From Planctomycetales bacterium (lineage in GTDB: Bacteria > Planctomycetota > Phycisphaerae > SM23-33): a DNA stretch of 40,966 bases. Location: assembly GCA_030642005.1 (NCBI GenBank), contig DAOWOP010000002.1:1-40966 (forward strand), given 5' to 3'. The notes below the pieces were generated by a model. It saw only the letters and a list, made by a program, of their open reading frames with translations. It ran no database searches and had not been told where the DNA came from. The translations under genes and the position numbers were made by a program. Shown here piece after piece: positions 9,431 to 28,565 of the stretch. Each line of letters opens with the position of its first letter. Positions within the stretch are counted from its first letter, which is position 1.

Positions 9431-10384
9431 TTAACGTCGCTTCCGGCGGAGCAGAACACCCAGGCCGCCAAGGCCCAGCAATGCCATCGTCGCCGGCTCG
9501 GGAACAGTTACGTCGCCCCATGTTTCCCCTGCTCGCACTTCGTCAACATAGACGTCCAGGTCTCTTCCGCCGTCGGTGGCCTCGTTATGGATATGCGTTT
9601 TAAAATACATCAAGTACCCGCCGTCATCGGAGAGCGCATCGCCGGTGTCCTCAAGGTCAGCCGAAGCAGGTTCGCCCAGACTCAGATCGGGGTTAATGTA
9701 GAGGTACGCCTCGTCCGAGTCGTAGCCTGTCGATCCGAGTACCAGTTTCAGGACAAACAGCATAGTCGAGCCACCGGCGTATGACGCCGTTGTGGTTGCT
9801 TTCGTTCCCTCTTGTGTCTGGAGCCAGACCTTAGCCTCGTCGCTGCCGACGCCATAGCCACCCTCAAGACCAATTTTGGTTTCCTTACCGGACGAGTGGG
9901 TATCGATCGTAAAGTCGATAGTTTCCTTATACGCAGCTCCTTCGATCAAGTCGTTGAAGTTGACCAGGTAACTGGTGTAAAGGGTGGTCTTCAGATCTCT
10001 TGTTTCGGTCTTGCGACTCGCACCATGTATCTTGCCGGCAACGCCGGATGCCTTGTCTGCATGATACCTTATGGCTCCGCCGCTGCTGTCCAGCCCGGTG
10101 TAGCTCAGGCCCGTACCACCGACAATATACTTGCCCACCGAGGGCGTGGCTTGATGATCGGACGTAGCCCATACGTAGTCGGCCTTCCAGCCGGTCGGTG
10201 CGGCATCCTCGCCTTTGAGATAGCCGTAGCCGTCGACGCCGCAATCAACGCTGGTGTCGTACTCTTCCGCGCCCGGGGTGTCACTTGCAAGGAAGTGATC
10301 CTCGTTCGTCATGACCGCGAAAGCGGAACTGCCCAAAGTCAGCGTCACCACCATTGCCGCAACTGTCCAATTCCTGTTTCTCAT
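9431..10384 (-). CDS. PEP-CTERM sorting domain-containing secreted protein
   Basis: C-terminus VPEPATMALLGLGGLGVLLRRKRR. Internal ATG 10384 with GGAGG 7 nt upstream gives the signal peptide MRNRNWTVAAMVVTLTLGSSAFA. Confidence 0.8.
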   Translation of the reverse strand: MRNRNWTVAAMVVTLTLGSSAFAVMTNEDHFLASDTPGAEEYDTSVDCGVDGYGYLKGEDAAPTGWKADYVWATSDHQATPSVGKYIVGGTGLSYTGLDSSGGAIRYHADKASGVAGKIHGASRKTETRDLKTTLYTSYLVNFNDLIEGAAYKETIDFTIDTHSSGKETKIGLEGGYGVGSDEAKVWLQTQEGTKATTTASYAGGSTMLFVLKLVLGSTGYDSDEAYLYINPDLSLGEPASADLEDTGDALSDDGGYLMYFKTHIHNEATDGGRDLDVYVDEVRAGETWGDVTVPEPATMALLGLGGLGVLLRRKRR

Positions 10385-10425
10385 CGTTCTGACCTCCATT
10401 TTAGGTCCCTCTCTGACATGTCGGC

Positions 10426-10438
10426 CATCACAGTGATG
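10426..10438. promoter_or_regulatory. perfect 6-1-6 palindrome CATCAC-A-GTGATG in a divergent promoter region
   Basis: Read directly. It lies 42-54 nt upstream of the PEP-CTERM gene ATG, between that gene and the divergent XylR/AraC-type regulator gene. Confidence 0.3.
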
Positions 10439-10547
10439 TCCGATCTCTCTATAAATTATATCGGCAATCCTGTTTTCGTCAAGGCGCATATTGCGTATAA
10501 ATTTTCCCTTTATTGCGTCATCGCCTTTTTTTTGTGGTATAATAATA

Positions 10548-11738
10548 ATGATGAGCAAGACCGGAAGGGACAAAGGGTTATCAGGTCATTCAGCATCTGA
10601 TCGCAGTCGGCGAGTGGCGGTATTTCTGCATTGGGATTCTGCCGAGGCTCGGGCCATGCGTCTGGGGATCGCCCGGTACGCCGCCGCCCACGGGCTGTGG
10701 ACATTCTTTTCACGGGACGAGGAAGCCTTTGAGCCATTGCGGAAACTGGAAAAGTGGGACGGCGACGGGATCATAGCATCAATCCATAACGAGGACTTTG
10801 CCGGGAAGATTCGTGCTTCGGGCGCAACAGCGGTGAATGTTTCGGCTGCGCCGGGTTTCCCCATTGTTACAAAGGACGATACGGCGGCCGGTCGGCTGGC
10901 GGCTGATCACCTGATAAAACAGGGGCATCAACATTTCGGGTACGTTGGCATAAAGGGTATATACACCCGTCGGCAACGGGATGGATTTATCAGGACGATT
11001 CAACAGGCCGGGCTGGGCGAGGCTGTTTATGAACCTGCGCCGCTCGATCGGATGCCTGTAAGGTGGAAAACCGCTCAGAAGTTGCTGGTCCGCTGGCTGC
11101 GGTCGCTGCCTAAACCGATCGGCTTGACGGCCTGCGATAACTACCGCGGCCGGCAGGTCATTGAGGCCGCCCGAGCCTGCGGAGTCCTTATACCGGACGA
11201 GGTGGCGGTAATCGGCGTCAGCAACGATGAGATGATGTGCGAGTTCTGCAACCCGCCGCTTTCGAGTATTTCGCTCCAGGGCGAGCGGATCGGTTATGAG
11301 GCCGCGAGGCTGCTGGATCATTTAATGAACGGCGGGACGCCGCCGGAAAAGCCCATCCTCATCCCGCCCGGCGAGGTGGTGGTGAGGCGGTCGTCGGACA
11401 TGCTGGCTATCGCCGATGCCGACCTGGCCGCCGCGGTGCGATTTATCCGCGAGCACGGAAACAAGGCGATCGGCGTAGCCGACGTCCTGAACGAAGTGCC
11501 GATCTCCCGGCGCAGCCTGGAGCGGCGATTCGGCGCAATCGTCGGGCACAGCCCCTGGCGGGAAATCCGCCTCGCACAGATCGCCCACGTAAAAAAACTC
11601 CTTATCGAAACCGATATGTCCATGCCAAAGGTCGCCGCGGCATCGGCCTTTTACGATGCCAAGCGCCTCTCCACTATCTTCAAGGAAGAGACCGGCGTAA
11701 CGCCGACGGCCTACCGCCGACAGTTCCGAACCGTCTGA
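10548..11738 (+). CDS. XylR-like transcriptional regulator (periplasmic-binding-protein-like sugar-binding domain + AraC-type HTH)
   Basis: The N-terminal two thirds resemble a LacI/PBP-type ligand domain (RVAVFLHWDSAEARAMRLGIARYAA...). The C-terminus is an AraC HTH (VADVLNEVPISRRSLERRF...TGVTPTAYRRQF). ATG 10548 or 10551. Confidence 0.85.
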   Translation: MMSKTGRDKGLSGHSASDRSRRVAVFLHWDSAEARAMRLGIARYAAAHGLWTFFSRDEEAFEPLRKLEKWDGDGIIASIHNEDFAGKIRASGATAVNVSAAPGFPIVTKDDTAAGRLAADHLIKQGHQHFGYVGIKGIYTRRQRDGFIRTIQQAGLGEAVYEPAPLDRMPVRWKTAQKLLVRWLRSLPKPIGLTACDNYRGRQVIEAARACGVLIPDEVAVIGVSNDEMMCEFCNPPLSSISLQGERIGYEAARLLDHLMNGGTPPEKPILIPPGEVVVRRSSDMLAIADADLAAAVRFIREHGNKAIGVADVLNEVPISRRSLERRFGAIVGHSPWREIRLAQIAHVKKLLIETDMSMPKVAAASAFYDAKRLSTIFKEETGVTPTAYRRQFRTV

Positions 11739-11752
11739 CCGGCAAAAAAGAA

Positions 11753-11867
11753 TTAGCAGGGATGCAGGGGATACAGGGGATAGGAAATGAATTTAAAAGA
11801 GGAAAAAATATCTGTTGGAATTTTGAAAAATAAGTTTTATCCCGTGCATCCCTTGCATCCCTGCTAA
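11753..11867. repeat. family-1 hairpin element, copy B
   Basis: Left arm TTAGCAGGGATGCAGGGGATACAGGGGATA at 11753-11782. Right arm 11838-11867 is the reverse complement of TTAGCAGGGATGCAAGGGATGCACGGGATA. The loop is 55 nt and AT-rich. Confidence 0.9.
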
Positions 11868-11901
11868 TTCTTTCCCCCGCCGCGTTTTCAAAACTTTCTT
11901 C

Positions 11902-11929
11902 TTGACATGTGTTGCACGCGCTGTACACT
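11902..11929 (+). promoter_or_regulatory. promoter P1 (TTGACA - 16 nt - TACACT) upstream of the DtxR-FeoA gene
   Basis: TTGACA at 11902-11907 and TACACT at 11924-11929. AAAACTTTC at 11890-11898 and GAACTTTC at 11942-11949 flank it. Paralogous to P2 at 15562-15589. Confidence 0.55.
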
Positions 11930-11974
11930 GTTTGAGTAGATGAACTTTCGCGGGTTTTACCGGGATTACGCTTG

Positions 11975-12685
11975 ATGGCAAAGCAGGAGCGAAAACTTAC
12001 CCGTCGGCTTGAGGATTACCTCGAAGCCGTGCTCGTTCTCGTCCGCCGAAACGGCGTTGCGCGTGTCAGCGAGATTGCCGCGGCGACCAACGTCAGCAAA
12101 TCGTCGGTAACGGCCGCACTTAAACACCTTGCCGGCAACGGGCTGGTCAATCACGACCCGTATCAGTTCGTAACGCTCACGCCCCACGGGACGGAACTGG
12201 CACAAAAGGTGCTCGATAAGCACAATCTGCTGATGTCGTTCCTGACCGACGTCATGAACATCGACCCAACCGCCGCAGAAGAAAACGCCTGCCGGATGGA
12301 GCACGTCGTCGATGATATTGTGCTGGAGCGGATGGAGATGTTGGCGACGTTCATTCAGGAATGTCCGCTGGGCGGGAAAGATTGGATGGAAAAGTTTTCA
12401 AACTATTGCCGGCAACATCCATCGGAAACATCGGAGCAATCAACCTTGAACACGACAATGGACAAGATGAAACCTGGGCAAAAAGGCAAAATTGTAAGGG
12501 TTGGCGGTAGCATCGGAGCGGCGCGTCGCCGGCTTATGGACATGGGTGTTACTCCCGGCACGCCGTTCGAGGTCGAGCGCGTCGCGCCGCTGGGCGACCC
12601 GATCGAGATACGAATTCGAAAATACCACCTGACGCTGCGTAAGGCCGAGGCCGCCGGTATCACCGTGGAACCGATGGAAGAATGA
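11975..12685 (+). CDS. DtxR/MntR-family metal-dependent transcriptional regulator with a C-terminal FeoA (SH3-like) domain
   Basis: N-terminal winged helix (LEDYLEAVLVLVRRNGVARVSEIAAATNVSKSSVTAALKHL), a dimerisation/metal-binding domain, and a C-terminal FeoA-like segment (MKPGQKGKIVRV...GVTPGTPFEVERVAPLGDPIEIRI). ATG 11975; a TTG lies at 11972. Confidence 0.85.
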   Translation: MAKQERKLTRRLEDYLEAVLVLVRRNGVARVSEIAAATNVSKSSVTAALKHLAGNGLVNHDPYQFVTLTPHGTELAQKVLDKHNLLMSFLTDVMNIDPTAAEENACRMEHVVDDIVLERMEMLATFIQECPLGGKDWMEKFSNYCRQHPSETSEQSTLNTTMDKMKPGQKGKIVRVGGSIGAARRRLMDMGVTPGTPFEVERVAPLGDPIEIRIRKYHLTLRKAEAAGITVEPMEE

Positions 12686-12936
12686 ACGACGCAAACGTCA
12701 ACCCGCTCCCGCCGATGCCGCTCACGATGGCGCTGGTGGGTCAGAGAGTTACCTTCGCGGGCGTGCGCAACGCCGGAAGAGGCCTGACGCACCGCCTGGC
12801 CGAGATGGGCCTGACGCCGGGTGAGAACCTGGAGATTCTAAATCGCGGATCCGGGCCGTTCATCGTCTCGATAAAGGGAAGCAGATTCGTCCTGGGCAGA
12901 GGAATGGTGCATCGAATACTCGTCAGACCAGGATAG
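12682..12936 (+). CDS. feoA: ferrous iron transport protein A
   Basis: 84 aa with the FeoA pattern (LTHRLAEMGLTPGENLEILNRGSGPFIVSIKGSRFVLGRGMVHRILV). The ATGA overlap with the upstream gene suggests translational coupling. Confidence 0.8.
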   Translation: MNDANVNPLPPMPLTMALVGQRVTFAGVRNAGRGLTHRLAEMGLTPGENLEILNRGSGPFIVSIKGSRFVLGRGMVHRILVRPG

Positions 12937-12946
12937 TAGTCAGTAG

Positions 12947-13106
12947 AAAAATCCGAATATCGAATGTCGAAATCCGAAACAATATCGAAATACAAATGAC
13001 TAAAATCCGAAACACAAAAAAACAGACATTCGTTTCTGTAATCTGTGTTTTGAACATTAGAAAATTCGGATTTTGAATTTGTTTCGGATTTCGATATTCG
13101 GATTTT
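12947..13106. repeat. family-2 AT-rich long hairpin element, copy 2 (inside the feoA-feoB gap)
   Basis: Left arm 12947-13025 and right arm 13043-13106 are imperfect inverted copies of about 65-80 nt. The unit structure is AATCCGAA / TATCGAA / TGTCGAA / ATCCGAAA. Confidence 0.85.
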
Positions 13107-13136
13107 ACTATCGACTCCTGTTGCAGGATATAAACC

Positions 13137-15323
13137 ATGACAGACAAGCATTTTACAATAGCCCTGGCCGGTAATCCCAACTCCGGCAAGACGACGGTCT
13201 TCAACGCCATAACCGGCGCACGCCAGCACGTGGGAAACTACCCCGGCGTAACGGTGGAGAAGAAGGCCGGCGCCGCCACCCACGGCGACGTCCGTCTGGA
13301 GGTGGTCGATCTGCCCGGCACGTACAGCCTGACGGCCTACAGCATCGAAGAAGTCGTCGCCCGAAACTTCCTGCTGAATGACAAACCCGACGTCGTCGTC
13401 GATATAGTGGATTCATCCAACCTCGAGCGCAACCTGTACCTGGCGACGCAGTTGATGGAACTGGGCGTGCCTCTGGTGTTGGCGTTCAATATGTCCGACG
13501 TAGCCGAAGGCAGGGGGTATAACATCGACGATGATAAACTGGCCGAACTGCTGGGCGTGCCGATAGTCAAGACGGTCGGACACAAGGGCAAGGGAATCAC
13601 CGAACTTCTCGATGCAGCCCTGGCTGTCGCCCGGGACGGCCAGGCCGTCGCATCACAGCGACACCCCAACTATGGCAGCGAAATCGAACCGCACCTAAAA
13701 CAACTGACAGGCCTGGTCGCCGAAAAATGCGACAAGCATCGCCCGCGATGGTTCGCCATAAAACTGCTGGAAAATGACGCCGAAACAATCAAGCGTCTCC
13801 GGCAAGCGTGCCCGCAGCACATCGAGGAATTGCTGGCCGAGGCCGAACGCCTGCGGCGCCACATCGAGAGCATCTGCGGCGATGCAGCCGAGATAATCCT
13901 CGCCGACCGGCGATACGGGTTCATCTCCGGCGCATGCACCGAAGCCGTTACCCAATCCGTCGAAGTCCGCCACGAACGGTCCGACAAAATCGACTCGGTA
14001 ATGACCAACCGCTATCTGGGCCTGCCGATATTCGCGCTGCTGATGTTCCTGGTCTTTCAGTTGACCTTTTTCATGGGCAATCCGCTGGTGGACCTGCTCG
14101 ATAGCGGAAAGGGTCTCCTGGCTGAAGCCGTTGGCGGACTGTGGGGCGAGTCGGGCGCCGACAGCGTTCTGCGAAGCCTGCTGGTCGATGGGATAATCGA
14201 AGGCGTCGGGGCCGTTATGGTCTTCACGCCACTGATAATGCTGCTTTTCCTGGCGATTGCGTTCCTTGAAGACTCCGGCTACATGGCCCGCGCAGCCTTC
14301 GTTATCGACCGCCTGATGCACAAGATAGGTCTGCACGGAAAGAGTTTCATCCCGATGCTCATCGGCTTCGGCTGCACCGTTCCGGGTATCATGGCCACGC
14401 GAACGCTGGAAACCCGCCGCGACCGCCTGACTACCATCCTCGTGCTGCCGCTGATGAGTTGCGGGGCGAGATTGCCGATTTATGTGCTCATTCTCGGTGC
14501 GTTCTTTCCCGTAAACACGGTCTTGCGGCTCTTTGGAATACTCCCCGTAACCAATCATGCGCTATGGCTGTTTCTTATCTACATTATAGGCATTGCCCTG
14601 GCGATTATCTGTGCGAAGATTTTCCGGGCAACTCTCCTCAAGGGCGAAGCCACGCCGTTCGTAATGGAACTACCCCCCTACCGCATGCCGACGCTCAAGG
14701 GCCTGGCGATCCATATGTGGGAGCGGACCTGGCTTTACATCAAAAAGGCCGGGACGATCATCCTTGCTATCGTCGTGGTTCTCTGGGCGCTTGCGTATTG
14801 GCCGAAACTGGGTGAAGAAAAACTGGTCGTCTTCGAACAGCGGCGCGCCGCCGTACAGGCCGACGCCCATCCCGACAAAGAGCAAACCGCCGAACTGCTC
14901 GCCGAAATCGACGCAGCCGAGCATGAAGCCAAACTGGAACATTCAGCAATAGGTCGGGCAGGAAAGACCATCGCACCGGTGTTCAAGCCCTGCGGATTCG
15001 ACTGGAAAATTTCCACCGCCACGATTGGAGCGTTCGCAGCCAAGGAAGTATTCGTCGGACAGATGGGCGTGCTCTATTCGGTCGGCGACGACGTTGACGA
15101 AGAATCCGTGGATCTCCGCGAAAAACTCGCCGCCAAGTACACGCCGCTGATGGGATTCTGCATCATGCTGTTCAGCCTGATAAGTATGCCGTGCATGGTA
15201 ACCGTCGCTGTTACGGTGCGCGAAGCCGGGTGGCGGTGGGCGCTGCTACAGGTAACCTACCTGACCGCCCTGGCGTGGGTGCTGACGACGATTGTCTATC
15301 AGGTCGGATCACGACTGATATAA
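13137..15323 (+). CDS. feoB: ferrous iron transporter B
   Basis: N-terminal G-domain (IALAGNPNSGKTTVFNAITG, DLPGTYSL, NMSD) followed by a polytopic membrane domain; 728 aa. AGGA lies 8 nt upstream of the ATG. Confidence 0.95.
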   Translation: MTDKHFTIALAGNPNSGKTTVFNAITGARQHVGNYPGVTVEKKAGAATHGDVRLEVVDLPGTYSLTAYSIEEVVARNFLLNDKPDVVVDIVDSSNLERNLYLATQLMELGVPLVLAFNMSDVAEGRGYNIDDDKLAELLGVPIVKTVGHKGKGITELLDAALAVARDGQAVASQRHPNYGSEIEPHLKQLTGLVAEKCDKHRPRWFAIKLLENDAETIKRLRQACPQHIEELLAEAERLRRHIESICGDAAEIILADRRYGFISGACTEAVTQSVEVRHERSDKIDSVMTNRYLGLPIFALLMFLVFQLTFFMGNPLVDLLDSGKGLLAEAVGGLWGESGADSVLRSLLVDGIIEGVGAVMVFTPLIMLLFLAIAFLEDSGYMARAAFVIDRLMHKIGLHGKSFIPMLIGFGCTVPGIMATRTLETRRDRLTTILVLPLMSCGARLPIYVLILGAFFPVNTVLRLFGILPVTNHALWLFLIYIIGIALAIICAKIFRATLLKGEATPFVMELPPYRMPTLKGLAIHMWERTWLYIKKAGTIILAIVVVLWALAYWPKLGEEKLVVFEQRRAAVQADAHPDKEQTAELLAEIDAAEHEAKLEHSAIGRAGKTIAPVFKPCGFDWKISTATIGAFAAKEVFVGQMGVLYSVGDDVDEESVDLREKLAAKYTPLMGFCIMLFSLISMPCMVTVAVTVREAGWRWALLQVTYLTALAWVLTTIVYQVGSRLI

Positions 15324-15335
15324 GGTCAAACGAAC

Positions 15336-15497
15336 ATGTGGGAATGGGAATACGTGATAGTGGGCGTTGTTGTATTCGCAGCAGTTGCCGGTGCGGCATA
15401 TTCGCTCTACCGCAGCCTCACCGGCAAGACAAAAGGCCCCTGCGGACACTGCCCCATGAAAAATAATTGCAATTCAAACAAAGCGGACGCAACATAA
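15336..15497 (+). CDS. FeoB-associated Cys-rich membrane peptide (53 aa, below the ORF-track length cutoff)
   Basis: My own translation: MWEWEYVIVGVVVFAAVAGAAYSLYRSLTGKTKGPCGHCPMKNNCNSNKADAT. One TM helix plus a CxxC...C tail, starting 12 nt after the feoB stop. This is the typical architecture and position for the family. Confidence 0.6.
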   Translation: MWEWEYVIVGVVVFAAVAGAAYSLYRSLTGKTKGPCGHCPMKNNCNSNKADAT

Positions 15498-15561
15498 CAG
15501 CCTGATATAAAACAAGTTAGACTCGCTCGCAAAAATCCTGATAAAAAAACCAATTTTCTGC

Positions 15562-15589
15562 TTGACGAAAGTTTCTGTTTATGTACAAT
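15562..15589 (+). promoter_or_regulatory. promoter P2 (TTGACG - 16 nt - TACAAT) upstream of the 82-aa ORF and hemP
   Basis: TTGACG at 15562-15567 and TACAAT at 15584-15589. GAAAGTTTC at 15567-15575 lies in the spacer and GAAACTTTC at 15601-15609 lies downstream. Confidence 0.6.
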
Positions 15590-15632
15590 GTTAGATAGGT
15601 GAAACTTTCCAGCGTATAAGAGATTTTCAATC

Positions 15633-15881
15633 ATGGCCAAAGCGGCGTTCTTTGCTGAAGAATTGACGGTTACGGACAAGGGCGAGTTCCTTGTCATCGA
15701 AGGCGTTCGGCGTTGTCCGCATGGCCATGCCGTCGAGCAGGTGTTTATCACAGTGCCGAAAAAACTGGGGCACCTGTTCACAGAAATTCGCCGCGACGAG
15801 GAGTCCTCCGAAGCCGGGAGTCCCCAACCTCCCTCGCCCGTTGTGGCTGAACGATTGCGGAAATATTTTGGGAACAATTAA
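15633..15881 (+). CDS. hypothetical protein (82 aa)
   Basis: ORF directly upstream of hemP with a 3-nt gap. No family recognised. Confidence 0.5.
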   Translation: MAKAAFFAEELTVTDKGEFLVIEGVRRCPHGHAVEQVFITVPKKLGHLFTEIRRDEESSEAGSPQPPSPVVAERLRKYFGNN

Positions 15882-15884
15882 CCG

Positions 15885-16076
15885 ATGACAGACCGGATAC
15901 AACATGAGTCCGAACGGAATGATGCCGGCCCGGATAACGGCAAGCCCGCCGGATTGCCATCCGTCATTGACTCACAATACCTCTTCGGCCAATGCCAAGA
16001 GGTGGCCATAAGCCACAAGGGACAGATGTATCGCCTGAGGATTACACGAAACGATAAGTTGATCCTGACCAAGTAA
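15885..16076 (+). CDS. hemP: hemin uptake protein HemP
   Basis: 63 aa with the HemP family C-terminal signature: VIDSQYLFGQCQEVAISHKGQMYRLRITRNDKLILTK. Confidence 0.75.
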   Translation: MTDRIQHESERNDAGPDNGKPAGLPSVIDSQYLFGQCQEVAISHKGQMYRLRITRNDKLILTK

Positions 16077-16321: not shown

Positions 16322-17116
16322 ATGAACACTGCTGCAAAATTGTTACTTCTCGTCGTATTGACCGCCGTCCCGGCCGCTCAGGCTGACGCTGCGGTGAAAC
16401 TAAGTCCGGAAGCGGACAACTGGCTCAGTTCATGCCCGAACAGTTACACCGCAAACATGCACAGCGATTCCATTAAAGGCAAGCAGAACCGGGTCCGTAC
16501 GAGCAATTTCTCCTGCAGCACCGCCTATGTCCGCAACTTCCACACGTTGTTGAATTTCAATCTGAGCAGTTATTCGGACAGCAGCGAAATCATCAGCGCG
16601 AAATTGAAAATGTACTTCTACAGCGGCGATACCAGCGGCCGGACATACAACCTCCATCGCGTGACCAATTCATGGTCGGAGTCGGCTTCCTCCTGGGTGA
16701 ACCGGGACGGCAGCAGCCAATGGGATTCCATGACCGGCTGGGATAATGATCCAAATCACGTGTACCAGTACGGCGGCGGCGATTACGACGCAACCGTCGA
16801 GGCCTTCACTGTCATGCCGAGTTCCACGGACCAATGGGTGGAGTGGGACATCACCGACCTGGTCAAGGATTGGATTGACGGAACGGACAACTACGGCCTG
16901 ATTATCATGGACAGCGACGAGTTCGATGCGCCCTGGGAGACCGGGCAGGACAAGGAAGACTACATGTGCTTCTTCCGCGGCAACGAGTACGGAAGCACAG
17001 CCGAGCAGATCGCCCAGCGGCCGTATCTTGAAATCGTCCCTGAGCCGACGAGCATGACCTTACTGGGCGTCGCCGCCGCGACGATGTTGCTGCGCCGACG
17101 CAGGGCGAAGGCGTAG
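16322..17116 (+). CDS. PEP-CTERM protein with a DNRLRE-like carbohydrate-binding beta-sandwich domain
   Basis: Signal peptide MNTAAKLLLLVVLTAVPAAQADA. Domain pattern: LLNFNLSSY...ISAKLKMYFY...YNLHRVTNSWSESASSW...WVEWDITDLVKDWIDGTDNYGLIIM. C-terminus: VPEPTSMTLLGVAAATMLLRRRRAKA. AAGGAG RBS. Confidence 0.8.
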   Translation: MNTAAKLLLLVVLTAVPAAQADAAVKLSPEADNWLSSCPNSYTANMHSDSIKGKQNRVRTSNFSCSTAYVRNFHTLLNFNLSSYSDSSEIISAKLKMYFYSGDTSGRTYNLHRVTNSWSESASSWVNRDGSSQWDSMTGWDNDPNHVYQYGGGDYDATVEAFTVMPSSTDQWVEWDITDLVKDWIDGTDNYGLIIMDSDEFDAPWETGQDKEDYMCFFRGNEYGSTAEQIAQRPYLEIVPEPTSMTLLGVAAATMLLRRRRAKA

Positions 17117-17203
17117 CGCAGTTTTTCGTCGGTAATCTTGTTTTGAGGTTCTGGGCCGTCGCAAGAAGCGCCCCAAAACCTCTGTTCCGATAGGATTATT
17201 TTA

Positions 17204-17929
17204 ATGGGCATGTGTTACAAACGTGGTTTTACGCTGGTCGAACTGCCTGCAGTGAGCAAACGCAAAAGCCTCGCTTTTACGTTAGTCGAACTGCTGGTGG
17301 TTGTCGCTATTATCGCGCTGCTGGTGTCCCTCCTTCTGCCTTCGCTGTCCAGGGCGAAGGGATCGACACGGCGCGTCCTGTGCGCAGGTAATCTGAGCCA
17401 CATCGGTCTCGGGCTGATTATGTACACAGAAGAACATGACGGGTGGTATCCGGCAGCGGAAGCCTCAGGCGAGACGCCCCCGGCACATGTCAATTGGTGG
17501 CAGAACACCTCGCTTCTGCACAACTTCGGTGTTCGCCCCACACAACAGCAGGAATCCATCCTGGTCTGTCCGAGCGATGAAAATCCCGGCCAGTTTGCCA
17601 ACGGGTCGCCCAAGCCGCTGTGGACCAGTTACGCCGCCAATACTTCCTGCTTCGGTGTGGCGCGAGGCGGATCGAGGCGGCCTCGGCGAACGTCGGCCGT
17701 AAAAGTCCCCTCACAGACATTTGCCTTCGGGGATGCCTGCTGGGATCACGATGCCCCGTTGGTCCTTGGCCACCAGATATGCGTGGAAGGCCAATTCGCT
17801 TTCCGACACGATGGGATTGCGCAAATTCTCACGCCGACCCGAGAGGTCTTACAGTTTAGACCCGAAGACATCCCATACGACGGGGACGCCCCGTTCTGGG
17901 GCAATAATCCGCGATACATGACGCCTTGA
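17204..17929 (+). CDS. prepilin-type N-terminal cleavage/methylation domain protein (type II secretion pseudopilin-like)
   Basis: [31 protein letters not shown]. The start is uncertain: ATG 17204 includes a truncated second leader ([11 protein letters not shown]), while in-frame GTG 17252 gives a canonical short basic leader (MSKRKSLA|FTLVE). Confidence 0.75.
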
Positions 17930-17960
17930 ATAGTTACAGATTGTCCGAAAAAGGAATAAA

Positions 17961-18659
17961 ATGAGAAAAACAAGACTTGCAACATTGACGATTATCGCAG
18001 CCGTGGTCGCAGCCGGTTTCGTTCTGGTCCAGCCTGGCTGTACCAACCCTTCCAACGTTCAGCAAATAAGCGCAAAGACAGAGCCTTTGCGCGTCCGCAG
18101 GCCCGGCGGGAAGGTGCAGACCATCACCTTCGCACAGGCAATGGAATTCCATCACGAGCACGAAGACCACGCCGGCACGGTTACTTCGGCGACGCCGAAA
18201 AAATCATCCAAGGCCAAACCGGAAGACGATCACGATCACGACGACGGGCTTTGCATCGGCATAGCCACGGGGTACCAGGCGATACGTTATGCAGCCGGGA
18301 GGCTCTTTCCCGGCGAAACTCCAAACGCGAAGGATTTCGAACTGTCGGTGGCGGGTTCCATGCGAGGAGTTTGGGACGTCCTCGACCTCTATGCCGGCAG
18401 GAAACTCACCCGCCCCAAAACGAAACAGAAAAAGATGTCTATCGAGAGTTTTACCTTCACAGCCAGTCGCATCTCCACGGGCAAAACGCTGACGTTTCGC
18501 CTGCGAAGCGAACTGATATCAGCCGATTTCTTCACGCTGAAGAACCGGGGCGTCTCCTGCGGCGATGCCAAACTGGAGGTTCTCAAGAAACAGGCCGCCC
18601 GGAAGATTTTATCGGCCCACCCGGAAGAATGTTTCGAGTGTCTAACCCATAGGAAATAA
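17961..18659 (+). CDS. exported His/Asp-rich protein, possibly a lipoprotein, with an FmdE-like core
   Basis: Signal sequence with a Cys (AAGFVLVQPGC). His-rich stretches HHEHEDH and EDDHDHDD. DGLCIGIATGYQAIRYAA resembles the FmdE motif HGHLCPGLAxGYRA. C-terminal CFEC. Confidence 0.55.
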   Translation: MRKTRLATLTIIAAVVAAGFVLVQPGCTNPSNVQQISAKTEPLRVRRPGGKVQTITFAQAMEFHHEHEDHAGTVTSATPKKSSKAKPEDDHDHDDGLCIGIATGYQAIRYAAGRLFPGETPNAKDFELSVAGSMRGVWDVLDLYAGRKLTRPKTKQKKMSIESFTFTASRISTGKTLTFRLRSELISADFFTLKNRGVSCGDAKLEVLKKQAARKILSAHPEECFECLTHRK

Positions 18660-18717
18660 CTGAGAAAACAGGAAATCCGAAGGTCGCCCAGCCACCCAGC
18701 GAGCTAAAGGCCAGCAA

Positions 18718-18766
18718 GGGAGCGAGTGGAACGCTTTTTTCGCGTCCATCCGCTCCCTTTTTTATT
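18718..18766 (+). terminator. rho-independent terminator (repeated module, intact copy)
   Basis: Outer stem GGGAGCG (18718-18724) with CGCTCCC (18751-18757), inner stem GGAACGC with GCGTCC, followed by TTTTTTATT. Confidence 0.75.
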
Positions 18767-18787
18767 GGCCTGCCTGGAGTGCAGGCG

Positions 18788-19717
18788 ATGCAGGAAATTG
18801 AAATGACAGTCAGCACACAAAAAAACGTCGGCAGGCGCCGTGGCTGCGGTGCTTGCGGCCACATTCGGTCAGGTATGGAGGGTTTATCGTGGCCGCAAAC
18901 ACCGCGGCCACGGCACCCGGGTTTCACGCTGGTCGAATTGCTCGTGGTGGTTTCGATTATCGCTATGCTGGTGAGCATCCTTTTGCCGTCGTTGGGCAGG
19001 GCCAAGGATGCGGCAAAAGCCGTGGTGTGCCTGAATAACCAGCGGGTACTCGGCATAGCCCTGCGATACTACGCCCATGACCGCAACGGCCGACTGCCTT
19101 CGGCTGAAACGTTCTACGAGGACGCCGCACCGTATCTCGACAAGTCGCTGCCCGACAGTGTATGGGATTACAAGCGAGAAAACATGCCGCAGGCGCTGTT
19201 TTGCCCGTGCGATTCGGACCCGTTTCCCTGCCCGTACATGGGCGGAGCGTTCGAGGTAACTTCCTACCTAGTCAATGGCGCCGAGACCGACTACGCGATG
19301 GGTGGAGGGACGCGAATCGCACTGGGATTGTTCGGCGGCAAGGGAAATATCGACGAGCCGATCTGTGCAGCCGAGTGCATGTTAATCGGCGAGGCAACCA
19401 ATTACTGCAAGATTGCCGACCTGGACCACCCCGCCGCCCAGGCCGCCTTTAGCGCCGCCGGAGCGGACCTGGGCGGATCGCGAAGGCGTTTCCATCACCG
19501 CGCCACCAGCGGATTTTTCCACAACGGCAGGATGAACGTCTATTTCGCCGATGGGCACGGCTCGGCGGTAAGAGGCAAAACGGTGGACCCCCTGCCCGTC
19601 AGCGACTGGCCCAGCGGGGCGCTGATGGATAAGACCACAGCCTTCTACCCGACGCTCTCGCTGCCGATGGCGACGGAAAACCCGGACTTCTGGGGCCCGC
19701 CGTATGACAGTTGGTAA
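18788..19717 (+). CDS. prepilin-type N-terminal cleavage/methylation domain protein with an H-X9-DG motif
   Basis: [33 protein letters not shown], and C-terminal HNGRMNVYFADGHG (H-X9-DG). Start uncertain: ATG 18788 has GGAG 8 nt upstream; GTG 18779, ATG 18803 and ATG 18875 are alternatives. Confidence 0.8.
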   Translation: MQEIEMTVSTQKNVGRRRGCGACGHIRSGMEGLSWPQTPRPRHPGFTLVELLVVVSIIAMLVSILLPSLGRAKDAAKAVVCLNNQRVLGIALRYYAHDRNGRLPSAETFYEDAAPYLDKSLPDSVWDYKRENMPQALFCPCDSDPFPCPYMGGAFEVTSYLVNGAETDYAMGGGTRIALGLFGGKGNIDEPICAAECMLIGEATNYCKIADLDHPAAQAAFSAAGADLGGSRRRFHHRATSGFFHNGRMNVYFADGHGSAVRGKTVDPLPVSDWPSGALMDKTTAFYPTLSLPMATENPDFWGPPYDSW

Positions 19718-19730
19718 CCGGGTGTAAAAA

Positions 19731-20327
19731 ATGGACGATTCGGACAGGAAAAAATTACTGACAGCAGCAGGCGTTTCGCTTCTCGCGGCGGTAACGATCG
19801 GGGCGATGCTGGGCCTTGCCGCCGGAGCGTGGCGGGTCGGCTTCGGGTGGCTGGCGCTTCCGGTGGGCCTGGCGGCGGGCGTTCCGTTGCGGCTATTCGG
19901 TATGCATCGCCATCGCGCGACATTCCTGGCTGCGCTGCTGTGTACGGGAGCGGGGTTGGCCGCACACATCGGCGTCCGCCGGCTGGCCAAACCGGAGTGG
20001 ACGGCAAAGCAGCAGGTTGGCGACGAAAAACTGGATGAACTATCCCGCGAGGTGCTCGCGCTGCAAATGTGCTGCGAGCAGAAGATTATGGGAGTGTGGG
20101 ACTACGACGGCGTCCCGCAGGAGATAAAGGACGAAGCCGACGGGCGCGTCAAAGCAATGTCGGAAAAGGAAAAACTCGCACTGTGCGACGAGACCTTCGC
20201 CCGGCGGATTAACACCCCCGCAGGCGGGGGTGGTCGGGGCAGAGGCTTCATTGCCCAGGCCGGCTGGGCGGTACTGTCCGGTGTGCTGGCAATTGCGCCG
20301 CTGGCGCTGAAAAACCGGTATGAATGA
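19731..20327 (+). CDS. hypothetical membrane protein (3-4 TM helices)
   Basis: 198-aa ORF with N-terminal TM helices, a charged central segment and a C-terminal TM helix. No family recognised. Confidence 0.5.
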   Translation: MDDSDRKKLLTAAGVSLLAAVTIGAMLGLAAGAWRVGFGWLALPVGLAAGVPLRLFGMHRHRATFLAALLCTGAGLAAHIGVRRLAKPEWTAKQQVGDEKLDELSREVLALQMCCEQKIMGVWDYDGVPQEIKDEADGRVKAMSEKEKLALCDETFARRINTPAGGGGRGRGFIAQAGWAVLSGVLAIAPLALKNRYE

Positions 20328-20473
20328 GAACCGAAAGGAGGTGATTGAAAATGTAACATCAAACGGAGAAAACGGAGCAGATGTAGATGTATGACCAGCC
20401 AGACGGTCTTCAAAGCCGATCCAGCCAAAAACCTTTGGTGGCTTTTCAGAAGCCACAATGAGGAGAGAATGAT

Positions 20474-21250
20474 ATGAAGTATGCAACGAAGATTTTGTTG
20501 ACAGTATTGGTTCTTGCGCTGGCCGGTTCGACCGCTGTGGCGGATTTCGGCTATCGCGACAAATTCGCTCCCGGCTGGGAGTCGGCGACCGGCTACACGG
20601 TCCAGGACTGGGGACTGCATGATCTCGGTTGGGACCCTGTGGAGGAAGAATGGATTGGGCCCGGCCAGCCGCTACCGGCGGACAACGGGTACACCAATTC
20701 TTACGGAACGCCTACGTGTGTCTGGGATACTCAGACTCCGCAAGGCTATTACGGCTGGAATGGCGGCCCCCCTATGCCTCCGGGAACACATCCTGCCTGG
20801 GCGGATGATACCTGGGGCGGCATGATTCAAATGAGCGGTGACGGTTCCGCTGCGTTAACTGCTACGGTAAATCCCGGTGCCGAGAACGGTGTGCTGAGAA
20901 TCTGGGTCGAATACGACTGGTTCGCAAGCGGGAACGTGTCAGCCGGCATCGCCGGCGCGACGGATATCACGCCGGCCACCTATTACAATCACCAGCTCGG
21001 TACCGGCGGATCGAGCGGGAGTCCATGGTACCGGACCATCAAGGTCTTTGAGTTCACCGAGAATCCGGACACGCCGTTCAACGTGGTGTTCACCGCGACG
21101 GGTTTTGCGCCGATGATGGACTCGTTCGAGATCAGCACGGCTATCGGCGCAGCCGTTCCGCCGGATATGCCGGTTCCAGAGCCGGCGACGATGGTCCTGT
21201 TGGGTCTCGGCGGCGTCGGTGTACTGATGAGGCGAAGACGCAGAGGCTAA
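20474..21250 (+). CDS. PEP-CTERM sorting domain-containing secreted protein
   Basis: Signal peptide MKYATKILLTVLVLALAGSTAVA. C-terminus VPEPATMVLLGLGGVGVLMRRRRRG. GGAG lies 8 nt upstream of the ATG. Confidence 0.8.
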   Translation: MKYATKILLTVLVLALAGSTAVADFGYRDKFAPGWESATGYTVQDWGLHDLGWDPVEEEWIGPGQPLPADNGYTNSYGTPTCVWDTQTPQGYYGWNGGPPMPPGTHPAWADDTWGGMIQMSGDGSAALTATVNPGAENGVLRIWVEYDWFASGNVSAGIAGATDITPATYYNHQLGTGGSSGSPWYRTIKVFEFTENPDTPFNVVFTATGFAPMMDSFEISTAIGAAVPPDMPVPEPATMVLLGLGGVGVLMRRRRRG

Positions 21251-21257
21251 AAAAAAG

Positions 21258-21342
21258 TCGGGTGCCATGCTTTCACGCGAAGCGGGTAAGCATGTCCGCT
21301 ACATTTACATGCCCATCCCTTCGGGAAGGGCATGGCACCCGA
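21258..21342 (-). terminator. large hairpin plus U8 tract, oriented for minus-strand transcription
   Basis: Perfect 13-bp stem, TCGGGTGCCATGC (21258-21270) with GCATGGCACCCGA (21330-21342). The A8 run at 21249-21256 reads as U8 after the hairpin on the minus strand. No T-run follows on the plus strand. Confidence 0.45.
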
Positions 21343-21468
21343 TAGTAACGCTGTTAATGTACAAATGTGAATGTGTGTGCAAGTTGTGCGTAAGTCAGGC
21401 AGAGAAGCCCGAAGGCCGATCCACCCAGCCCATTCGCTCCTTGCTCGGCTAATTGAATGGAGAAAACA

Positions 21469-22161
21469 ATGGGTATCAAAAGTAGTATCGTTGTAGCAAT
21501 GCTGTTGGTTGTTTTGTCGGCTGGTTCGGTTGCCAGGGCCGATTTTACACTGAATGTTGACGAGGTGTTTTACTCGGCAATGGGCGGCGGACCGTTCGTT
21601 AAAAACTATGTCCTGACCTGTAATACAGGGGCCGGTGAAGCATGGGAAAGCATGGCGTTTCTGAAGTTCGACCTGACGGACCTGCCGAGCGCGCCGGTTC
21701 CGTCAGCCTGGTTGAGCCTCGAGAACATCCCGCCGGCAGGCGGAATGACGCTGACGCAGCCGTCGGAGGATGAGCCTGTGAAGATTTCCGTCCAGACCGT
21801 TACCGAAGACGTCTCGAAGATCACATCAGGCCAGATCGGCGTCTCGGATTTCCAGGACAATTATATCGGCGATGAGATAGACACTGCCGAGATAACAGTC
21901 AACGGGTTCTACTACTGGGACGTTACCGAACTGGTGAACGCCTGGATCGGCGGGGCGGATAATTACGGCTTCGCGCTGACGGGTCGGTACGACGACGATT
22001 TTGACCCGTGGCTCTGGCCTCATTTCGCCGGTAAGCCCAACGCCGCCTGGCCCGACAGCCTCGGGGCAGAACCTGTCATTGCCAACGTGCCGCTTCCCGA
22101 ACCGGCTTCCGCAGTATTATTGTTGTCGGGCGGCGTGCTGGCGATGTTCCGGCGACGGTAA
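21469..22161 (+). CDS. PEP-CTERM-like protein with a DNRLRE-like domain
   Basis: Signal peptide MGIKSSIVVAMLLVVLSAGSVARA (ATG 21469 has GGAG 7 nt upstream; ATG 21457 is an alternative). Domain pattern: AFLKFDLTDLP...AWLSLENI...YWDVTELVNAWIGGADNYGFALTG. C-terminus: LPEPASAVLLLSGGVLAMFRRR. Confidence 0.75.
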   Translation: MGIKSSIVVAMLLVVLSAGSVARADFTLNVDEVFYSAMGGGPFVKNYVLTCNTGAGEAWESMAFLKFDLTDLPSAPVPSAWLSLENIPPAGGMTLTQPSEDEPVKISVQTVTEDVSKITSGQIGVSDFQDNYIGDEIDTAEITVNGFYYWDVTELVNAWIGGADNYGFALTGRYDDDFDPWLWPHFAGKPNAAWPDSLGAEPVIANVPLPEPASAVLLLSGGVLAMFRRR

Positions 22162-22189: not shown

Positions 22190-22240
22190 GCGAAACGGCA
22201 AGCCGTGGGGTTTGCCGTTTCGCGGTATTTTCGGTTTTTT
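22190..22240 (+). terminator. rho-independent terminator
   Basis: Perfect 12-bp stem, GCGAAACGGCAA (22190-22201) with TTGCCGTTTCGC (22212-22223), followed by GGTATTTTCGGTTTTTT. Confidence 0.8.
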
Positions 22241-22274: not shown

Positions 22275-23231
22275 ATGAAAAGGTTTTACAGGCAGTTGTT
22301 GATCGGGTTGGTTCTTTCGGTTGTCCTGGCCGGTGCGGTCGGGTACGGAACAAACAATGCTCCAGCCATTACTGAAAATACCACGCCGACCGCTATGTCC
22401 GACGGTTCCGCCGGGCTGCTGGTTATCGCGCACGGCGCACCGATGCCGGCGTGGAACAAACCCGTCCTGGCATTGGAGAAACAGGTCGTCAAGGCGCTTG
22501 GGCCGAACAGCCCGTTCAAAAAGGTCAAGGTCGTCCTGATGGAGTTTGTGAAACCCTCGGTAGCCGACGGCGTCGCCGAGATGGAACGGGCCGGTTGCAG
22601 CCGGATCGTGGCCGTACCACTGCTGATCGCGCCGTCGAGCCATTCGCACTGGGACATTCCCGCCTTGCTGGGGCTTTACAGCGACGAGAAGATGAAGGCC
22701 GAACTTGCCGAAGAAGGCGCGACTATCGTCAAAAGCAAACTGCCCATAACCGTTACGGCTACGCTCGACAGCGGCGAGTTGCTCGTTGAGACGATGCTGG
22801 CGCGGGTGAAGGAACTGTCGAAGAACCCCGCCGAGGAGGCCGTGATCGTGCTGGCCCACGGCGACGACGGGCTGAAACCCTACTGGGACGCCTTGATGAA
22901 GCGTATCACGTACAACATCTGCGGGAAGACGGGCATCACCCATGCCGACTGGGCGTACGTCCACGTCGGGCAAGGGTATCGGTCCGGCGGCGTCCCGGCT
23001 ATTATGGCAGCGGCAGAGAATAGGAAGCGAGTGCTGCTGGTGGGATGCTACGTCTCAATGGGAGCGGCGGGGATGCACAAGCGGTTCATGAACCGCCCGA
23101 CGCGAATCCACGGAATGGCGCTGCCGAACCCCCTCAAAGGCAAGGACATCGTCGCGGCCAAACATGGCCTGCTGCCAAGCCCCGGCGCAGCCGAATGGAT
23201 CGCAAAAACCGCTAAAGCGGCGTTACGCTAA
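22275..23231 (+). CDS. CbiX/SirB-family (class II) chelatase-like protein with an N-terminal signal/anchor sequence
   Basis: Two CbiX-like halves (LLVIAHGAP...AVPLLIAPSSHSHWDIPALLG and VIVLAHGDDG...), preceded by a hydrophobic N-terminus (MKRFYRQLLIGLVLSVVLAGAVG). AAGGAAG RBS. Confidence 0.6.
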   Translation: MKRFYRQLLIGLVLSVVLAGAVGYGTNNAPAITENTTPTAMSDGSAGLLVIAHGAPMPAWNKPVLALEKQVVKALGPNSPFKKVKVVLMEFVKPSVADGVAEMERAGCSRIVAVPLLIAPSSHSHWDIPALLGLYSDEKMKAELAEEGATIVKSKLPITVTATLDSGELLVETMLARVKELSKNPAEEAVIVLAHGDDGLKPYWDALMKRITYNICGKTGITHADWAYVHVGQGYRSGGVPAIMAAAENRKRVLLVGCYVSMGAAGMHKRFMNRPTRIHGMALPNPLKGKDIVAAKHGLLPSPGAAEWIAKTAKAALR

Positions 23232-23267: not shown

Positions 23268-23828
23268 ATGAGCAAAGTTGGATTGTTTTATGGAAGCACA
23301 ACGGGAAATACAAAGAATGTGGCCGAGATGGTCCGGAACGAACTCGGCGCCGACAACGTTGACCTGCACGATGTCGCCGGGGCCGGTCCGGCTGACGTCG
23401 GCGGATACGGTATTCTCATTCTCGGCGTTTCCACGTGGGGACTTGGTGATCTTCAGGATGATTGGGAGGCGTTTGCTTCGAGCCTGAAGAGTTTGGACGG
23501 AAGGAAGGTAGCCCTGTTCGGTCTGGGCGATCAGCAGGCATATCCCGACACCTTCGTCAATGCCATGGGCACACTGTATGAAAAGGCCACCGAAGCCGGA
23601 GCCGACGTAGTAGGGGCCTGGCCGACAGACGGGTATGACTTCGGCGACTCGACGGCAGTCGTTAACTACGAGTTTGTGGGGCTGGCCTTGGACGAAGACA
23701 GACAACCTGACATGACGGCGGGGCGCGTGAAGGCGTGGGTCAATCAACTCAAGGTCGAACTGGGTTTGCAGACCGAGACTGAAATGTCGGATGAAACGTT
23801 ACAGCCACCGATGGGAGGCCGGATATGA
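23268..23828 (+). CDS. fldA: long-chain flavodoxin
   Basis: MSKVGLFYGSTTGNTKNVAEMV (FMN phosphate-binding loop), ILGVSTWGLGDLQDDW and FVGLALDEDRQPDMT. AAGGAG RBS. Confidence 0.9.
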   Translation: MSKVGLFYGSTTGNTKNVAEMVRNELGADNVDLHDVAGAGPADVGGYGILILGVSTWGLGDLQDDWEAFASSLKSLDGRKVALFGLGDQQAYPDTFVNAMGTLYEKATEAGADVVGAWPTDGYDFGDSTAVVNYEFVGLALDEDRQPDMTAGRVKAWVNQLKVELGLQTETEMSDETLQPPMGGRI

Positions 23829-24359: not shown

Positions 24360-24533
24360 CTACGCACCGGCCGAGATGGCGTTGACGGGGCACTCGGACT
24401 CGCACACGCCACAGTCTGTGCATTTCTCGGGGTCGATGATGAATTTGTCGTCGCCCTCGGTGATTGCATCGACGGGGCAGACCGGCACACAAGCGCCGCA
24501 CTTCGTACATTCGTCGGAGATTGTGTATGCCAT
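24360..24533 (-). CDS. 2x[4Fe-4S] ferredoxin (57 aa)
   Basis: MAYTISDECTKCGACVPVCPVDAI...CTDCGVCESECPVNAI: two CxxCxxCxxxCP motifs. Internal ATG 24533 with AAGGAG upstream. Confidence 0.85.
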   Translation of the reverse strand: MAYTISDECTKCGACVPVCPVDAITEGDDKFIIDPEKCTDCGVCESECPVNAISAGA

Positions 24534-24650
24534 TTCATTGCTCCTTATCTTGTACAAACATGGCTTGCATTACGCTGGCGACCACTCTATTTATTATTGG
24601 CAGACAAACCTATTGATGTCCACGCAATAACGCGGCCAGGGCAAAAAGGT

Positions 24651-28539: not shown

Positions 28540-28565
28540 CAAGGATGCAGGGGATACAGGGGATT
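28536..28565. repeat. family-1 element, copy C left arm (overlaps the accA stop codon)
   Basis: TTAGCAAGGATGCAGGGGATACAGGGGATT. Its TAG at 28537-28539 is the accA stop codon. Confidence 0.85.

Follow-up and report, generated by a model that had tools for sequence, protein, structure and literature searches.

Two promoters in a 40,966-nt stretch of the genome of a Planctomycetales bacterium (assembly GCA_030642005.1, contig DAOWOP010000002.1, positions 1-40,966; the whole stretch is hereafter called the window) share a short conserved element that we predict to be an operator. Promoter P1 lies upstream of the genes for a regulator of the DtxR/MntR family, feoA, and feoB, and promoter P2 lies upstream of a unit that includes hemP. 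Probably, P1 and P2 are sigma-70-type promoters, each overlapped by an operator for the repressor encoded at 11975-12685, and the two units are co-repressed in a metal-dependent manner. The observations behind this interpretation are the anatomy of the sequences, its conservation, and its association with one class of regulator; binding, repression, the metal, and the start of transcription we infer from them.

Two Promoters with a Common Anatomy

P1 (11902-11949) and P2 (15562-15609) have in common a CTTGAC, a 16-nt spacer, TACA(C/A)T, TGTT, and AACTTTC. A consensus scan places the -35 hexamer of P1, TTGACA, at 11902-11907 on the forward strand, preceded by the C of the common CTTGAC, and its -10 hexamer, TACACT, at 11924-11929. 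The hexamers of P2, also on the forward strand, are TTGACG at 15562-15567, a position that the alignment of P2 orthologues gives as well, and TACAAT at 15584-15589. Each promoter is called as sigma-70-like at 10 of 12 positions, and TTGAC is invariant among seven orthologous P1 promoters. The AACTTTC boxes (11943-11949 in P1 and 15603-15609 in P2) are each 13 nt past the -10. Predicted transcription starts likely lie near 11936 for P1 and 15596 for P2. The genes after both promoters begin with the residues MAK and have no obvious Shine-Dalgarno sequence.

The resemblance between P1 and P2 exceeds chance. The promoters are exactly 3660 bp apart and identical at 42 of 81 ungapped positions, versus 20.8 ± 4.1 identities in random pairs of 81-mers (maximum of 38 in 5000). 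AACTTTC occurs eight times on the two strands of the window, versus 4.2 expected, and four of these occurrences are within the ∼60-nt stretches of P1 and P2; GAAASTTTC occurs twice (0.38 expected), both times inside P2. An earlier, sequence-only reading had described both promoters, and its coordinates and strings are all present in the sequence, as are the CTTGAC -35 element, the 16-nt spacer, and the AACTTTC 13 nt after the -10 that it reported for both. Its -10 element, TGTACA followed by TGTT, holds in part. TACA and TGTT are conserved, but the leading TG is not kept in orthologous promoters (GCGTACACT, ATATACAAT, and ATAAACAAT) and is therefore probably incidental. The same reading called the promoters paralogous, a label that is unneeded: the common positions fall on the functional elements and the intervening spacers are unrelated. 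Public reads with sequence of the window come from DNA runs only, from marine-sediment and related metagenomes, with one marine-sediment metagenome containing 97% of its words.

A 22-bp Dyad Is the Predicted Operator Unit

Aligned sites yield a symmetric 22-bp consensus, AATGTTTGATA·TATCAAACATT (the dot separates the halves), whose information lies mainly in positions 1-9 and 14-22. We predict this dyad, which extends over part of the -10 hexamer and the likely start of transcription, to be the operator unit. The primary operator of P1 is ACTGTTTGAGT·AGATGAACTTT (11927-11948) and that of P2 is AATGTTAGATA·GGTGAAACTTT (15587-15608). AACTTTC is the right arm of the dyad and the TGTT that follows the -10 is its left arm, such that the fixed geometry of the operator results in the constant 13-nt distance from the -10 to AACTTTC. 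The operator begins with the final three bases of the -10 hexamer, and its 3′ end is at approximately +13. Judged from sequence alone, the predicted operator of each promoter overlaps the consensus -10 hexamer and is 24-26 nt ahead of the start codon. The sequence-only reading had taken the 9-bp palindrome GAAA(G/C)TTTC as the operator unit; comparative data replace it with the 22-bp dyad, of which AACTTTC is only the right arm. The broader proposal of that reading, that P1 and P2 carry a common cis-regulatory operator for the dtxR-feoAB and hemP units, gains support from the comparison, with the dyad kept before both units in relatives.

We scored sites with a weight matrix made from 11 distant loci (Desulfobacterales, Victivallales, Brocadiaceae, Pirellulales, and Phycisphaerae), with the window and related loci L001-L006 left out. 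Among the ∼41,000 positions of the 41-kb window, the matrix ranks P2 first (25.1 bits) and P1 second (13.7 bits), and no other position scores above 10 bits. Of 300 shuffled versions of the window, none reaches 20 bits and ∼6% reach 14 bits; in background windows of 250 bp, 8.7 bits marks the 99th percentile. The P1 position scores 13.8-22 bits in orthologues and the P2 position 23-30 bits. With the correct 9-nt spacing between arms, the combined promoter-operator pattern is CTTGAC-N16-TACANTGTT-N9-AAAC. A scan of a metagenome collection with 10 rather than 9 N between TGTT and AAAC returned 24 stretches, all of which score <3 bits and are chance matches, and it serves only as a rough control for the chance rate of the 18-base pattern.

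The Dyad Tracks One Recognition-Helix Class

We compared 79 loci encoding relatives of the window regulator, the closest of which are from Planctomycetales metagenome-assembled genomes (70-82% identity). Loci L001, L002, L004, and L005 are from contigs JAUVIQ010000095, DAOVLV010000038, CAYUYD010000013, and JAUWNJ010000001. Directly past the -10, the conserved element reads TACACTGTTTGAGTAGGCAAACTTT in close relatives, TAAAATGTTGGATGAATCAAACTTT in Brocadiaceae, and AATAATGTTGGACAGATAAAACATT in Victivallales, and dtxR orthologues of several phyla have this element upstream, either after the -10 or overlapping it. The loose pattern TGTT-N9-12-ARACWTT recovers near-perfect palindromes upstream of the regulator gene in Desulfobacterales (e.g., AATGTTTGATATATCAAACA), and near-perfect palindromic sites are present in L030, L032, and L035. 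Across 1.2 Mb of related loci, 62 positions score at least 12 bits, and ∼45 of them are located 27-200 bp upstream of the regulator gene. The seven P1 orthologues cannot be aligned upstream of the -35, and TTGAC, G..GTT, TACA.TGTTT, and AC.TT are invariant; P2 orthologues show a pattern of conservation like that of P1.

The dyad tracks one recognition-helix class of the regulator. Of 37 nonseed loci whose regulator has a V(T/S)xAL helix, 28 have a site that scores at least 12 bits within 250 bp upstream of the regulator gene, versus 0 of 28 loci, mostly of Firmicutes, whose regulator has a PSVxxAM helix. An unbiased test of 7-mer enrichment returned AATGTTT, CAAACAT, TGTTGGA, and GTTAGGT as the words of the V(T/S)xAL class; those of the PSVxxAM class are unrelated.

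Loci L047-L079 (Firmicutes, Treponema, and Prevotella) encode short homologues of 116-132 amino acids with the PSVxxAM helix and are without the dyad. Their upstream regions are enriched for TCGTATA, TGCACGA, and CGTGCAT, suggesting a different operator that is equally undescribed. In L104, a variant core, AATGTTCGGCATGCCGAATATT, at 3678-3699 in the dtxR/feoB junction scores 16.5 bits and is an almost perfect palindrome, and, upstream of dtxR, a related site at 2762-2783 comes after the -35. The existence of this variant suggests that the center of the dyad drifts.

Auxiliary Half-Sites Are Phased at 19 bp

Directly after the -35, both promoters have an auxiliary half-site. In P2, the left half of the auxiliary site AAAGTTTCTGT·TTATGTACAAT (15568-15589) is AAAGTTTCT (15568-15576) and the right half coincides with the -10. 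This left half scores 6.4 bits, relative to a top-1% cut-off of 1.8, and is kept in L001, L002, L004, and L005; a half-site of this kind is present at the -19 offset in 23% of primary sites. In P1, the left-type half-site TGTGTTGCA (TGTGTT; 11908-11916, forward strand), 19 bp upstream of the primary operator, is weak. It scores -0.1 bits, which is in the top 5% and outside the top 1%, and its G..GTT is invariant in orthologues. Across 35 strong sites, the mean matrix score is -9 at the -19 offset and approximately -24 at other offsets, and at -19 a site reaching 4 bits is present in 26%. Full tandem pairs 19 bp apart are present in L004 (14.4 and 22.9 bits), L012 of Phycisphaerae (13.9 and 20.3 bits), L016 of Victivallales (13.6 and 29.2 bits), L105 (11.5 and 30.8 bits), and L107 (16.4 and 18.7 bits). 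The layout is seen in Phycisphaerae, Victivallales, and three planctomycete lineages.

A second copy, direct or inverted, had been proposed for each promoter, GAAAGTTTC at 15567-15575 in P2 and AAAACTTTC at 11890-11898 in P1, and the two fare differently. GAAAGTTTC is the left half AAAGTTTCT of the conserved P2 auxiliary site, offset by exactly -19. AAAACTTTC is unconserved and was rejected as a part of the operator: orthologues read AATTTTC or AATTTCC, and the sequence is out of phase and scores approximately -20 bits at -38. Its region looks like part of a shared A/T-rich extension of the -35, ATTT(T/C)CnnCTTGAC. Separately, the block CCTGATATAAAACAAGTTAGA (15498-15530), located after the gene for the FeoB-associated protein and ∼40 bp upstream of the P2 -35, is kept even in the more distant L004. 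Within it, CAAGTTAGA (15513-15521) is a left-type half-site that has no partner or dyad and is outside the 19-bp phase.

In the mechanism we propose, a metal-loaded dimer of the regulator would bind the primary dyad, probably as one dimer per dyad as in MntR-type proteins, and a second dimer would be recruited to the auxiliary site 19 bp upstream. Because the -10 doubles as the partner half of the auxiliary site, filled sites would cover the entire core promoter, and RNA polymerase would be blocked. The regulator would shut its own operon, which consists of dtxR, feoA, feoB, and the gene for the FeoB-associated protein, by autorepression and, in parallel, would co-repress the module of hemP, PEP-CTERM, pseudopilin-like, and FmdE-like genes. 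Metal scarcity would release both units and plentiful metal would probably shut both together.

The Regulator and Its Metal

The best candidate for binding the operator is the DtxR-like protein of 236 amino acids encoded on the forward strand at 11975-12685 from an ATG start. It matches Pfam families Fe_dep_repress and Fe_dep_repr_C and a C-terminal FeoA/SH3-like domain, and is organized into a winged-helix DNA-binding domain, a domain for metal binding and for dimerization, and one C-terminal FeoA domain (residues 162-234). The N-terminal 140 residues match Escherichia coli MntR (2h09, 1e-14), Bacillus subtilis MntR (BsMntR), and Deinococcus radiodurans DR2539, with a weaker match to DtxR/IdeR. 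For the DNA-binding and dimerization domains, the top sequence matches in the PDB are 2h09, 6kta, 8pvt, and 1on1. Scores to the NCBIfam MntR equivalogs NF008273, NF003025, and NF047407 are below cut-off (81.3 vs. 153, 73.7 vs. 138, and 68.5 vs. 350, respectively).

The ligand signature of the regulator is D14, E17, H83, E102, C106, E109, and H110. In the alignment from the PDB search, D14, E17, and H83 are equivalent to Asp8, Glu11, and His77 of BsMntR and C106 replaces Glu99, with E109 and H110 in addition. E17, H83, E102, C106, E109, and H110 are kept in nearly all of 78 aligned homologues, and the Cys, Glu, and His of the primary site are invariant in all 78. Residue 14 is Asp across the V(T/S)xAL class, except in L033 (Asn), and is Asn or Met in the PSVxxAM class. 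The ligands of DtxR, which we take to be Met10, Cys102, Glu105, and His106 along with His79, Glu83, and His98, have D14, C106, E109, and H110 along with H83, M87, and E102 as their equivalents in the window regulator. Relative to this assumed reference, Asp is in place of Met10 and Glu is in place of His98.

As to the metal, we lean slightly toward Fe(II), on the basis of context, i.e., feoAB, hemP, the nearby flavodoxin gene (23268-23828), and the Cys ligand. Mn(II) is a less probable but credible choice, by analogy: the hybrid Asp/Cys/Glu/His site is the same as that of PgMntR of Porphyromonas gingivalis, a Mn-responsive protein that controls a FeoB-type Mn transporter.

Alternatives to a DtxR-Type Operator

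Several points weigh against our interpretation. Taken alone, the P1 site is weak at 13.7 bits, when ∼6% of whole-window shuffles reach 14 bits, and its right arm, GAACTTT, is degraded compared with orthologues (CAAACTTT). The auxiliary sites in the window are likewise weak as full sites (3.3 bits in P2 and -6.8 bits in P1). Sites for seeding the matrix were chosen by hand among pattern-search results; the k-mer test makes no use of them. Nine of the 37 loci with a V(T/S)xAL helix are without a good site, and all comparison loci were chosen by their regulator gene, leaving room for another factor that always accompanies these feo operons. A gene for a Fur-family protein (24651-25223) is 9 kb away.

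That protein, or another of its family, would be the binding factor if the dyad were a lineage-specific Fur box before feoAB and hemP, as in Proteobacteria. Both are classical Fur targets, the Fur-family gene is in the same neighborhood of metal genes, and selection of the comparison loci by a DtxR gene is compatible with such a role for Fur. We nevertheless consider it improbable because presence of the dyad follows the recognition-helix class of DtxR, at 28 of 37 versus 0 of 28 loci. The best match to the Fur box GATAATGATAATCATTATC is 9 of 19 positions in P1 and 12 of 19 in P2, the latter upstream of the -35 and unconserved; the delta-proteobacterial Fur box WTGAAAATNATTTTCAW (PMC545781) is matched at 11 of 16, and matches to the 7-1-7 motif are 9 of 14 and 8 of 14. 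The ZIP transporter gene that follows the Fur-family gene also suggests a Zur. The sequence-only reading was right that the element is no classical Fur box and only a weak match to the IdeR/DtxR iron box (10 of 19). A similarly low probability attaches to its own candidate, in which each promoter would have one or two copies of GAAA(G/C)TTTC and the 9-bp palindrome would serve as the operator of the DtxR-like protein or of another factor. Both exact copies of GAAASTTTC in the window are in P2 and AACTTTC is enriched in P1 and P2, but P1 has zero full copies and its upstream copy is unconserved. Among orthologues and distant lineages, the right arm reads AAAC(A/T)TT with any base after it, the preceding G varies (CAAAC, TAAAAC, and GAAAC), and conservation reaches symmetrically to AATGTT 15 bp upstream.

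The remaining alternatives dispense with a dedicated operator. The position of the block is fixed relative to the -10 in lineages of the Planctomycetes-Verrucomicrobia-Chlamydiae group, as it would be in an intrinsic feature of the promoter (e.g., a discriminator or an initially transcribed sequence) or in the signature of an alternative sigma factor. This is quite unlikely given that the element is palindromic, that the dyad of Desulfobacterales is placed otherwise relative to TTGAC, with that of L032 in the spacer or over the -35, and that another strong promoter-like site in the window (10482-10455, 11 of 12 positions) is without the element. Least likely of all is a role in the mRNA leader, as a structure or translational element, even with AACTTTC expected to be transcribed (approximately +7 to +13) and with MAK starts that have no obvious Shine-Dalgarno sequence. 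A search of the window against Rfam returned no family match, the predicted leaders fold no better than shuffled sequences (z = -0.79 and +0.72), and part of the left arm precedes the likely start. The symmetry of the dyad belongs to the DNA, and its arms are too short and too far apart for a stable hairpin.

The Two Units and Their Counterparts in Relatives

Downstream of the regulator gene in the P1 unit, feoA (12682-12936, 84 amino acids) overlaps the regulator stop codon by 4 bp and is followed by feoB (13137-15323, 728 amino acids) and a gene for a FeoB-associated Cys-rich membrane protein (15336-15497, 53 amino acids), all annotated with Pfam and on the forward strand. Gene order of dtxR-feoA-feoB is conserved among relatives. 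The gap between feoA and feoB (12937-13136) is 200 bp of noncoding DNA with no operator match or obvious feature; it is 64-150 bp in L001 and L002.

The P2 unit is also on the forward strand. Its first gene is an 82-codon open reading frame (ORF; 15633-15881) that has no family match and is present among relatives in L002 only. It is followed by hemP (15885-16076; Pfam 2e-18) and by co-directional genes, annotated with Pfam, that span 16322-22161 and are probably part of the unit. In order, these encode a PEP-CTERM/CBM96 protein, an N_methyl (pseudopilin-like) protein, an FmdE-like lipoprotein (17961-18659), a second N_methyl protein, the product of a 198-codon ORF, a PEP-CTERM protein, and a CBM96-like protein. 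A strong terminator-like hairpin on the forward strand, with a 15-bp stem and T run (22190-22223), is the likely end of the unit, and a terminator scan found no strong forward-strand terminator in the unit before 22190.

Relatives link the operator to the hemP module, which supports co-regulation and extends the P2 unit past hemP. Strong operator sites are ahead of the module in L001, L002, and L005. In L004, tandem sites are directly ahead of PEP-CTERM-like, N_methyl, and FmdE-like genes in a module without hemP, an arrangement shared with L105. In L107/L108, the module is apart from dtxR-feoB and the FmdE-like protein is only 38% identical, and hemP is preceded by TTGACAA-[TAAGTTTGATTAGTCGTACATT]-[ATTGTTAGGCATGTAGAACATT], with tandem sites of 16.4 and 18.7 bits. 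In L104, dtxR, feoB, the feoB-associated gene, hemP, and the PEP, N_methyl, and FmdE-like genes form one array behind a single operator-bearing promoter, with no second promoter.

The FmdE-like protein is rare, with 27 homologues at E ≤ 1e-10 among 5.8 billion proteins. Its N-terminus is of the lipoprotein type, with Cys27 invariant; C98, C200, and C224 are likewise invariant, and a His/Asp-rich segment (HHEHEDH...DHDHDD) is disordered. Its gene is always within a module of hemP, PEP-CTERM, N_methyl, and FmdE-like genes (16322-17929 in the window; L004, L104, L105, and L107). The only structural matches to its AlphaFold model (predicted local distance difference test score of 80.6) are the FmdE-like structures 2gvi and 2glz, at a probability of 0.96-0.97; both are structural-genomics entries, and the search gave no functional lead past the family. 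The module of hemP, PEP-CTERM, pseudopilin-like, and FmdE-like genes may be a metal-acquisition module.

Genomic Neighborhood

The DNA preceding P1 differs from that of close relatives. In L001, L002, and L005, cinA is directly upstream of dtxR, and in the window the two are separated by a PEP-CTERM gene (reverse strand, 9431-10573) and a gene for a XylR-like Peripla_BP_3/AraC regulator (10491-11738). At the junction of the inserted genes with the P1 region is a 127-bp element (11747-11873) that resembles a miniature inverted-repeat transposable element (MITE), with 36-bp terminal inverted repeats that are 92% complementary; it is 29 bp upstream of the P1 -35. The MITE repeat GGATGCAGGGGATACAGGGGAT recurs at 5418-5439 (reverse strand), 28543-28564 (forward strand), and 29287-29308 (reverse strand), with no recurrence expected by chance. 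Between the copies at 28543 and 29287 is an ORF of 152 codons that has no family match.

Past the P2 unit are further metal-related genes, which encode a CbiX-type chelatase (22275-23231), the flavodoxin (23268-23828), a 2x[4Fe-4S] ferredoxin of 57 amino acids (24360-24533, reverse strand), the Fur-family protein (24651-25223), and the ZIP transporter (25333-26205). A marginal operator-like match of 9.7 bits (24645-24666) is over the start codon of the Fur-family gene.

Comparison with Known Systems

PgMntR is the closest characterized relative of the window regulator, and the metal may thus be Mn(II) or Fe(II). Its gene is in an operon with that of the FeoB-type manganese transporter FB2 (feoB2), and the protein binds its own promoter; Mn(II) enhances and Fe(II) destabilizes binding, which was studied with a 385-bp fragment, and the operator was never delimited (PMC4805248). 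The two proteins are alike as DtxR-family repressors with a C-terminal FeoA, encoded by genes arranged with that of a FeoB-type transporter, and in their hybrid primary sites (D14/C106/E109/H110 in the window regulator and Asp19/Cys108/Glu111/His112 in PgMntR; PMC4805248). They differ in that PgMntR has two fused FeoA domains, whereas the window regulator has one and the second FeoA is encoded by the separate gene with the 4-bp overlap. Literature searches on the operator and on DtxR-feoAB in Planctomycetes or anammox bacteria returned nothing specific, with PgMntR as the sole close precedent, and no description of the dyad consensus or 19-bp tandem layout was found in the literature searched.

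Other members of the superfamily share some features. The dimer of D. radiodurans DR2539 is on a 21-bp pseudo-palindrome of dr1709 (bioRxiv 10.1101/2024.02.12.579695; PDB 8pvt/8pvz/8pw0). MntR-type operators, with one dimer per ∼21-22-bp dyad and specificity in the outer 5-bp blocks, would by analogy fit the 22-bp dyad described here, and in MntR-type systems the operator is over the promoter of a metal importer, as is predicted for the dyad. Unlike MntR, the window regulator has a Cys at the position of Glu99 of MntR as well as a FeoA domain at the C-terminus, its predicted target is feoAB rather than mntH or mntABC, and its operator differs in sequence. The actinobacterial DtxR/IdeR proteins, which repress iron-uptake genes by promoter occlusion, are of the same superfamily and share its three-domain architecture and a ligand equivalent to Cys102. 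Their iron box, TTAGGTTAGGCTAACCTAA, does not fit: the best match is 10 of 19 positions in both P1 and P2, a level that 340 positions of the window reach, and the window dyad is of even length (22 bp) and has a different half-site spacing. Cores of the type GTTAGGTA·TACCTAAC in L018, L020, L025, and L029 recall the TTAGG of the iron box. Proteobacterial Fur-box systems are similar in regulatory logic and in targets (feoAB and hemP, with flavodoxin nearby) but have an unrelated family of regulator and no sequence match.

Implications

Autoregulation by a metal-dependent repressor that occludes its promoter is a textbook mechanism, and the part without a description in the literature searched is the consensus and tandem layout. 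We tentatively advance two proposals that, taken jointly, are possible rather than expected. One is that the regulator represents an uncharacterized, phylum-spanning subfamily of DtxR/MntR proteins with a PgMntR-like Asp/Cys hybrid site, a V(T/S)xAL helix, an operator code of its own (AATGTTTGATA·TATCAAACATT), and a 19-bp-phased auxiliary half-site wired into the -35 and -10. The other is that, in planctomycetes, this subfamily would control, besides feoAB, an unrecognized exported module consisting of hemP, a PEP-CTERM surface protein, a pseudopilin-like protein, and a His-rich FmdE-like lipoprotein, which is possibly a new system of metal acquisition.

Regulators of this kind are common in anaerobic sediment bacteria of Planctomycetota, Lentisphaerota, Desulfobacterota, and Verrucomicrobiota. 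What has been an anonymous "iron-dependent repressor next to feoAB" gains a predicted operator, with which regulons may be read from metagenome-assembled genomes, and the PgMntR-type subfamily, in which the binding site was never mapped, gains a candidate one. The hemP module is in turn marked as a candidate metal-regulated export module, which would provide a first functional handle on proteins without a known role.

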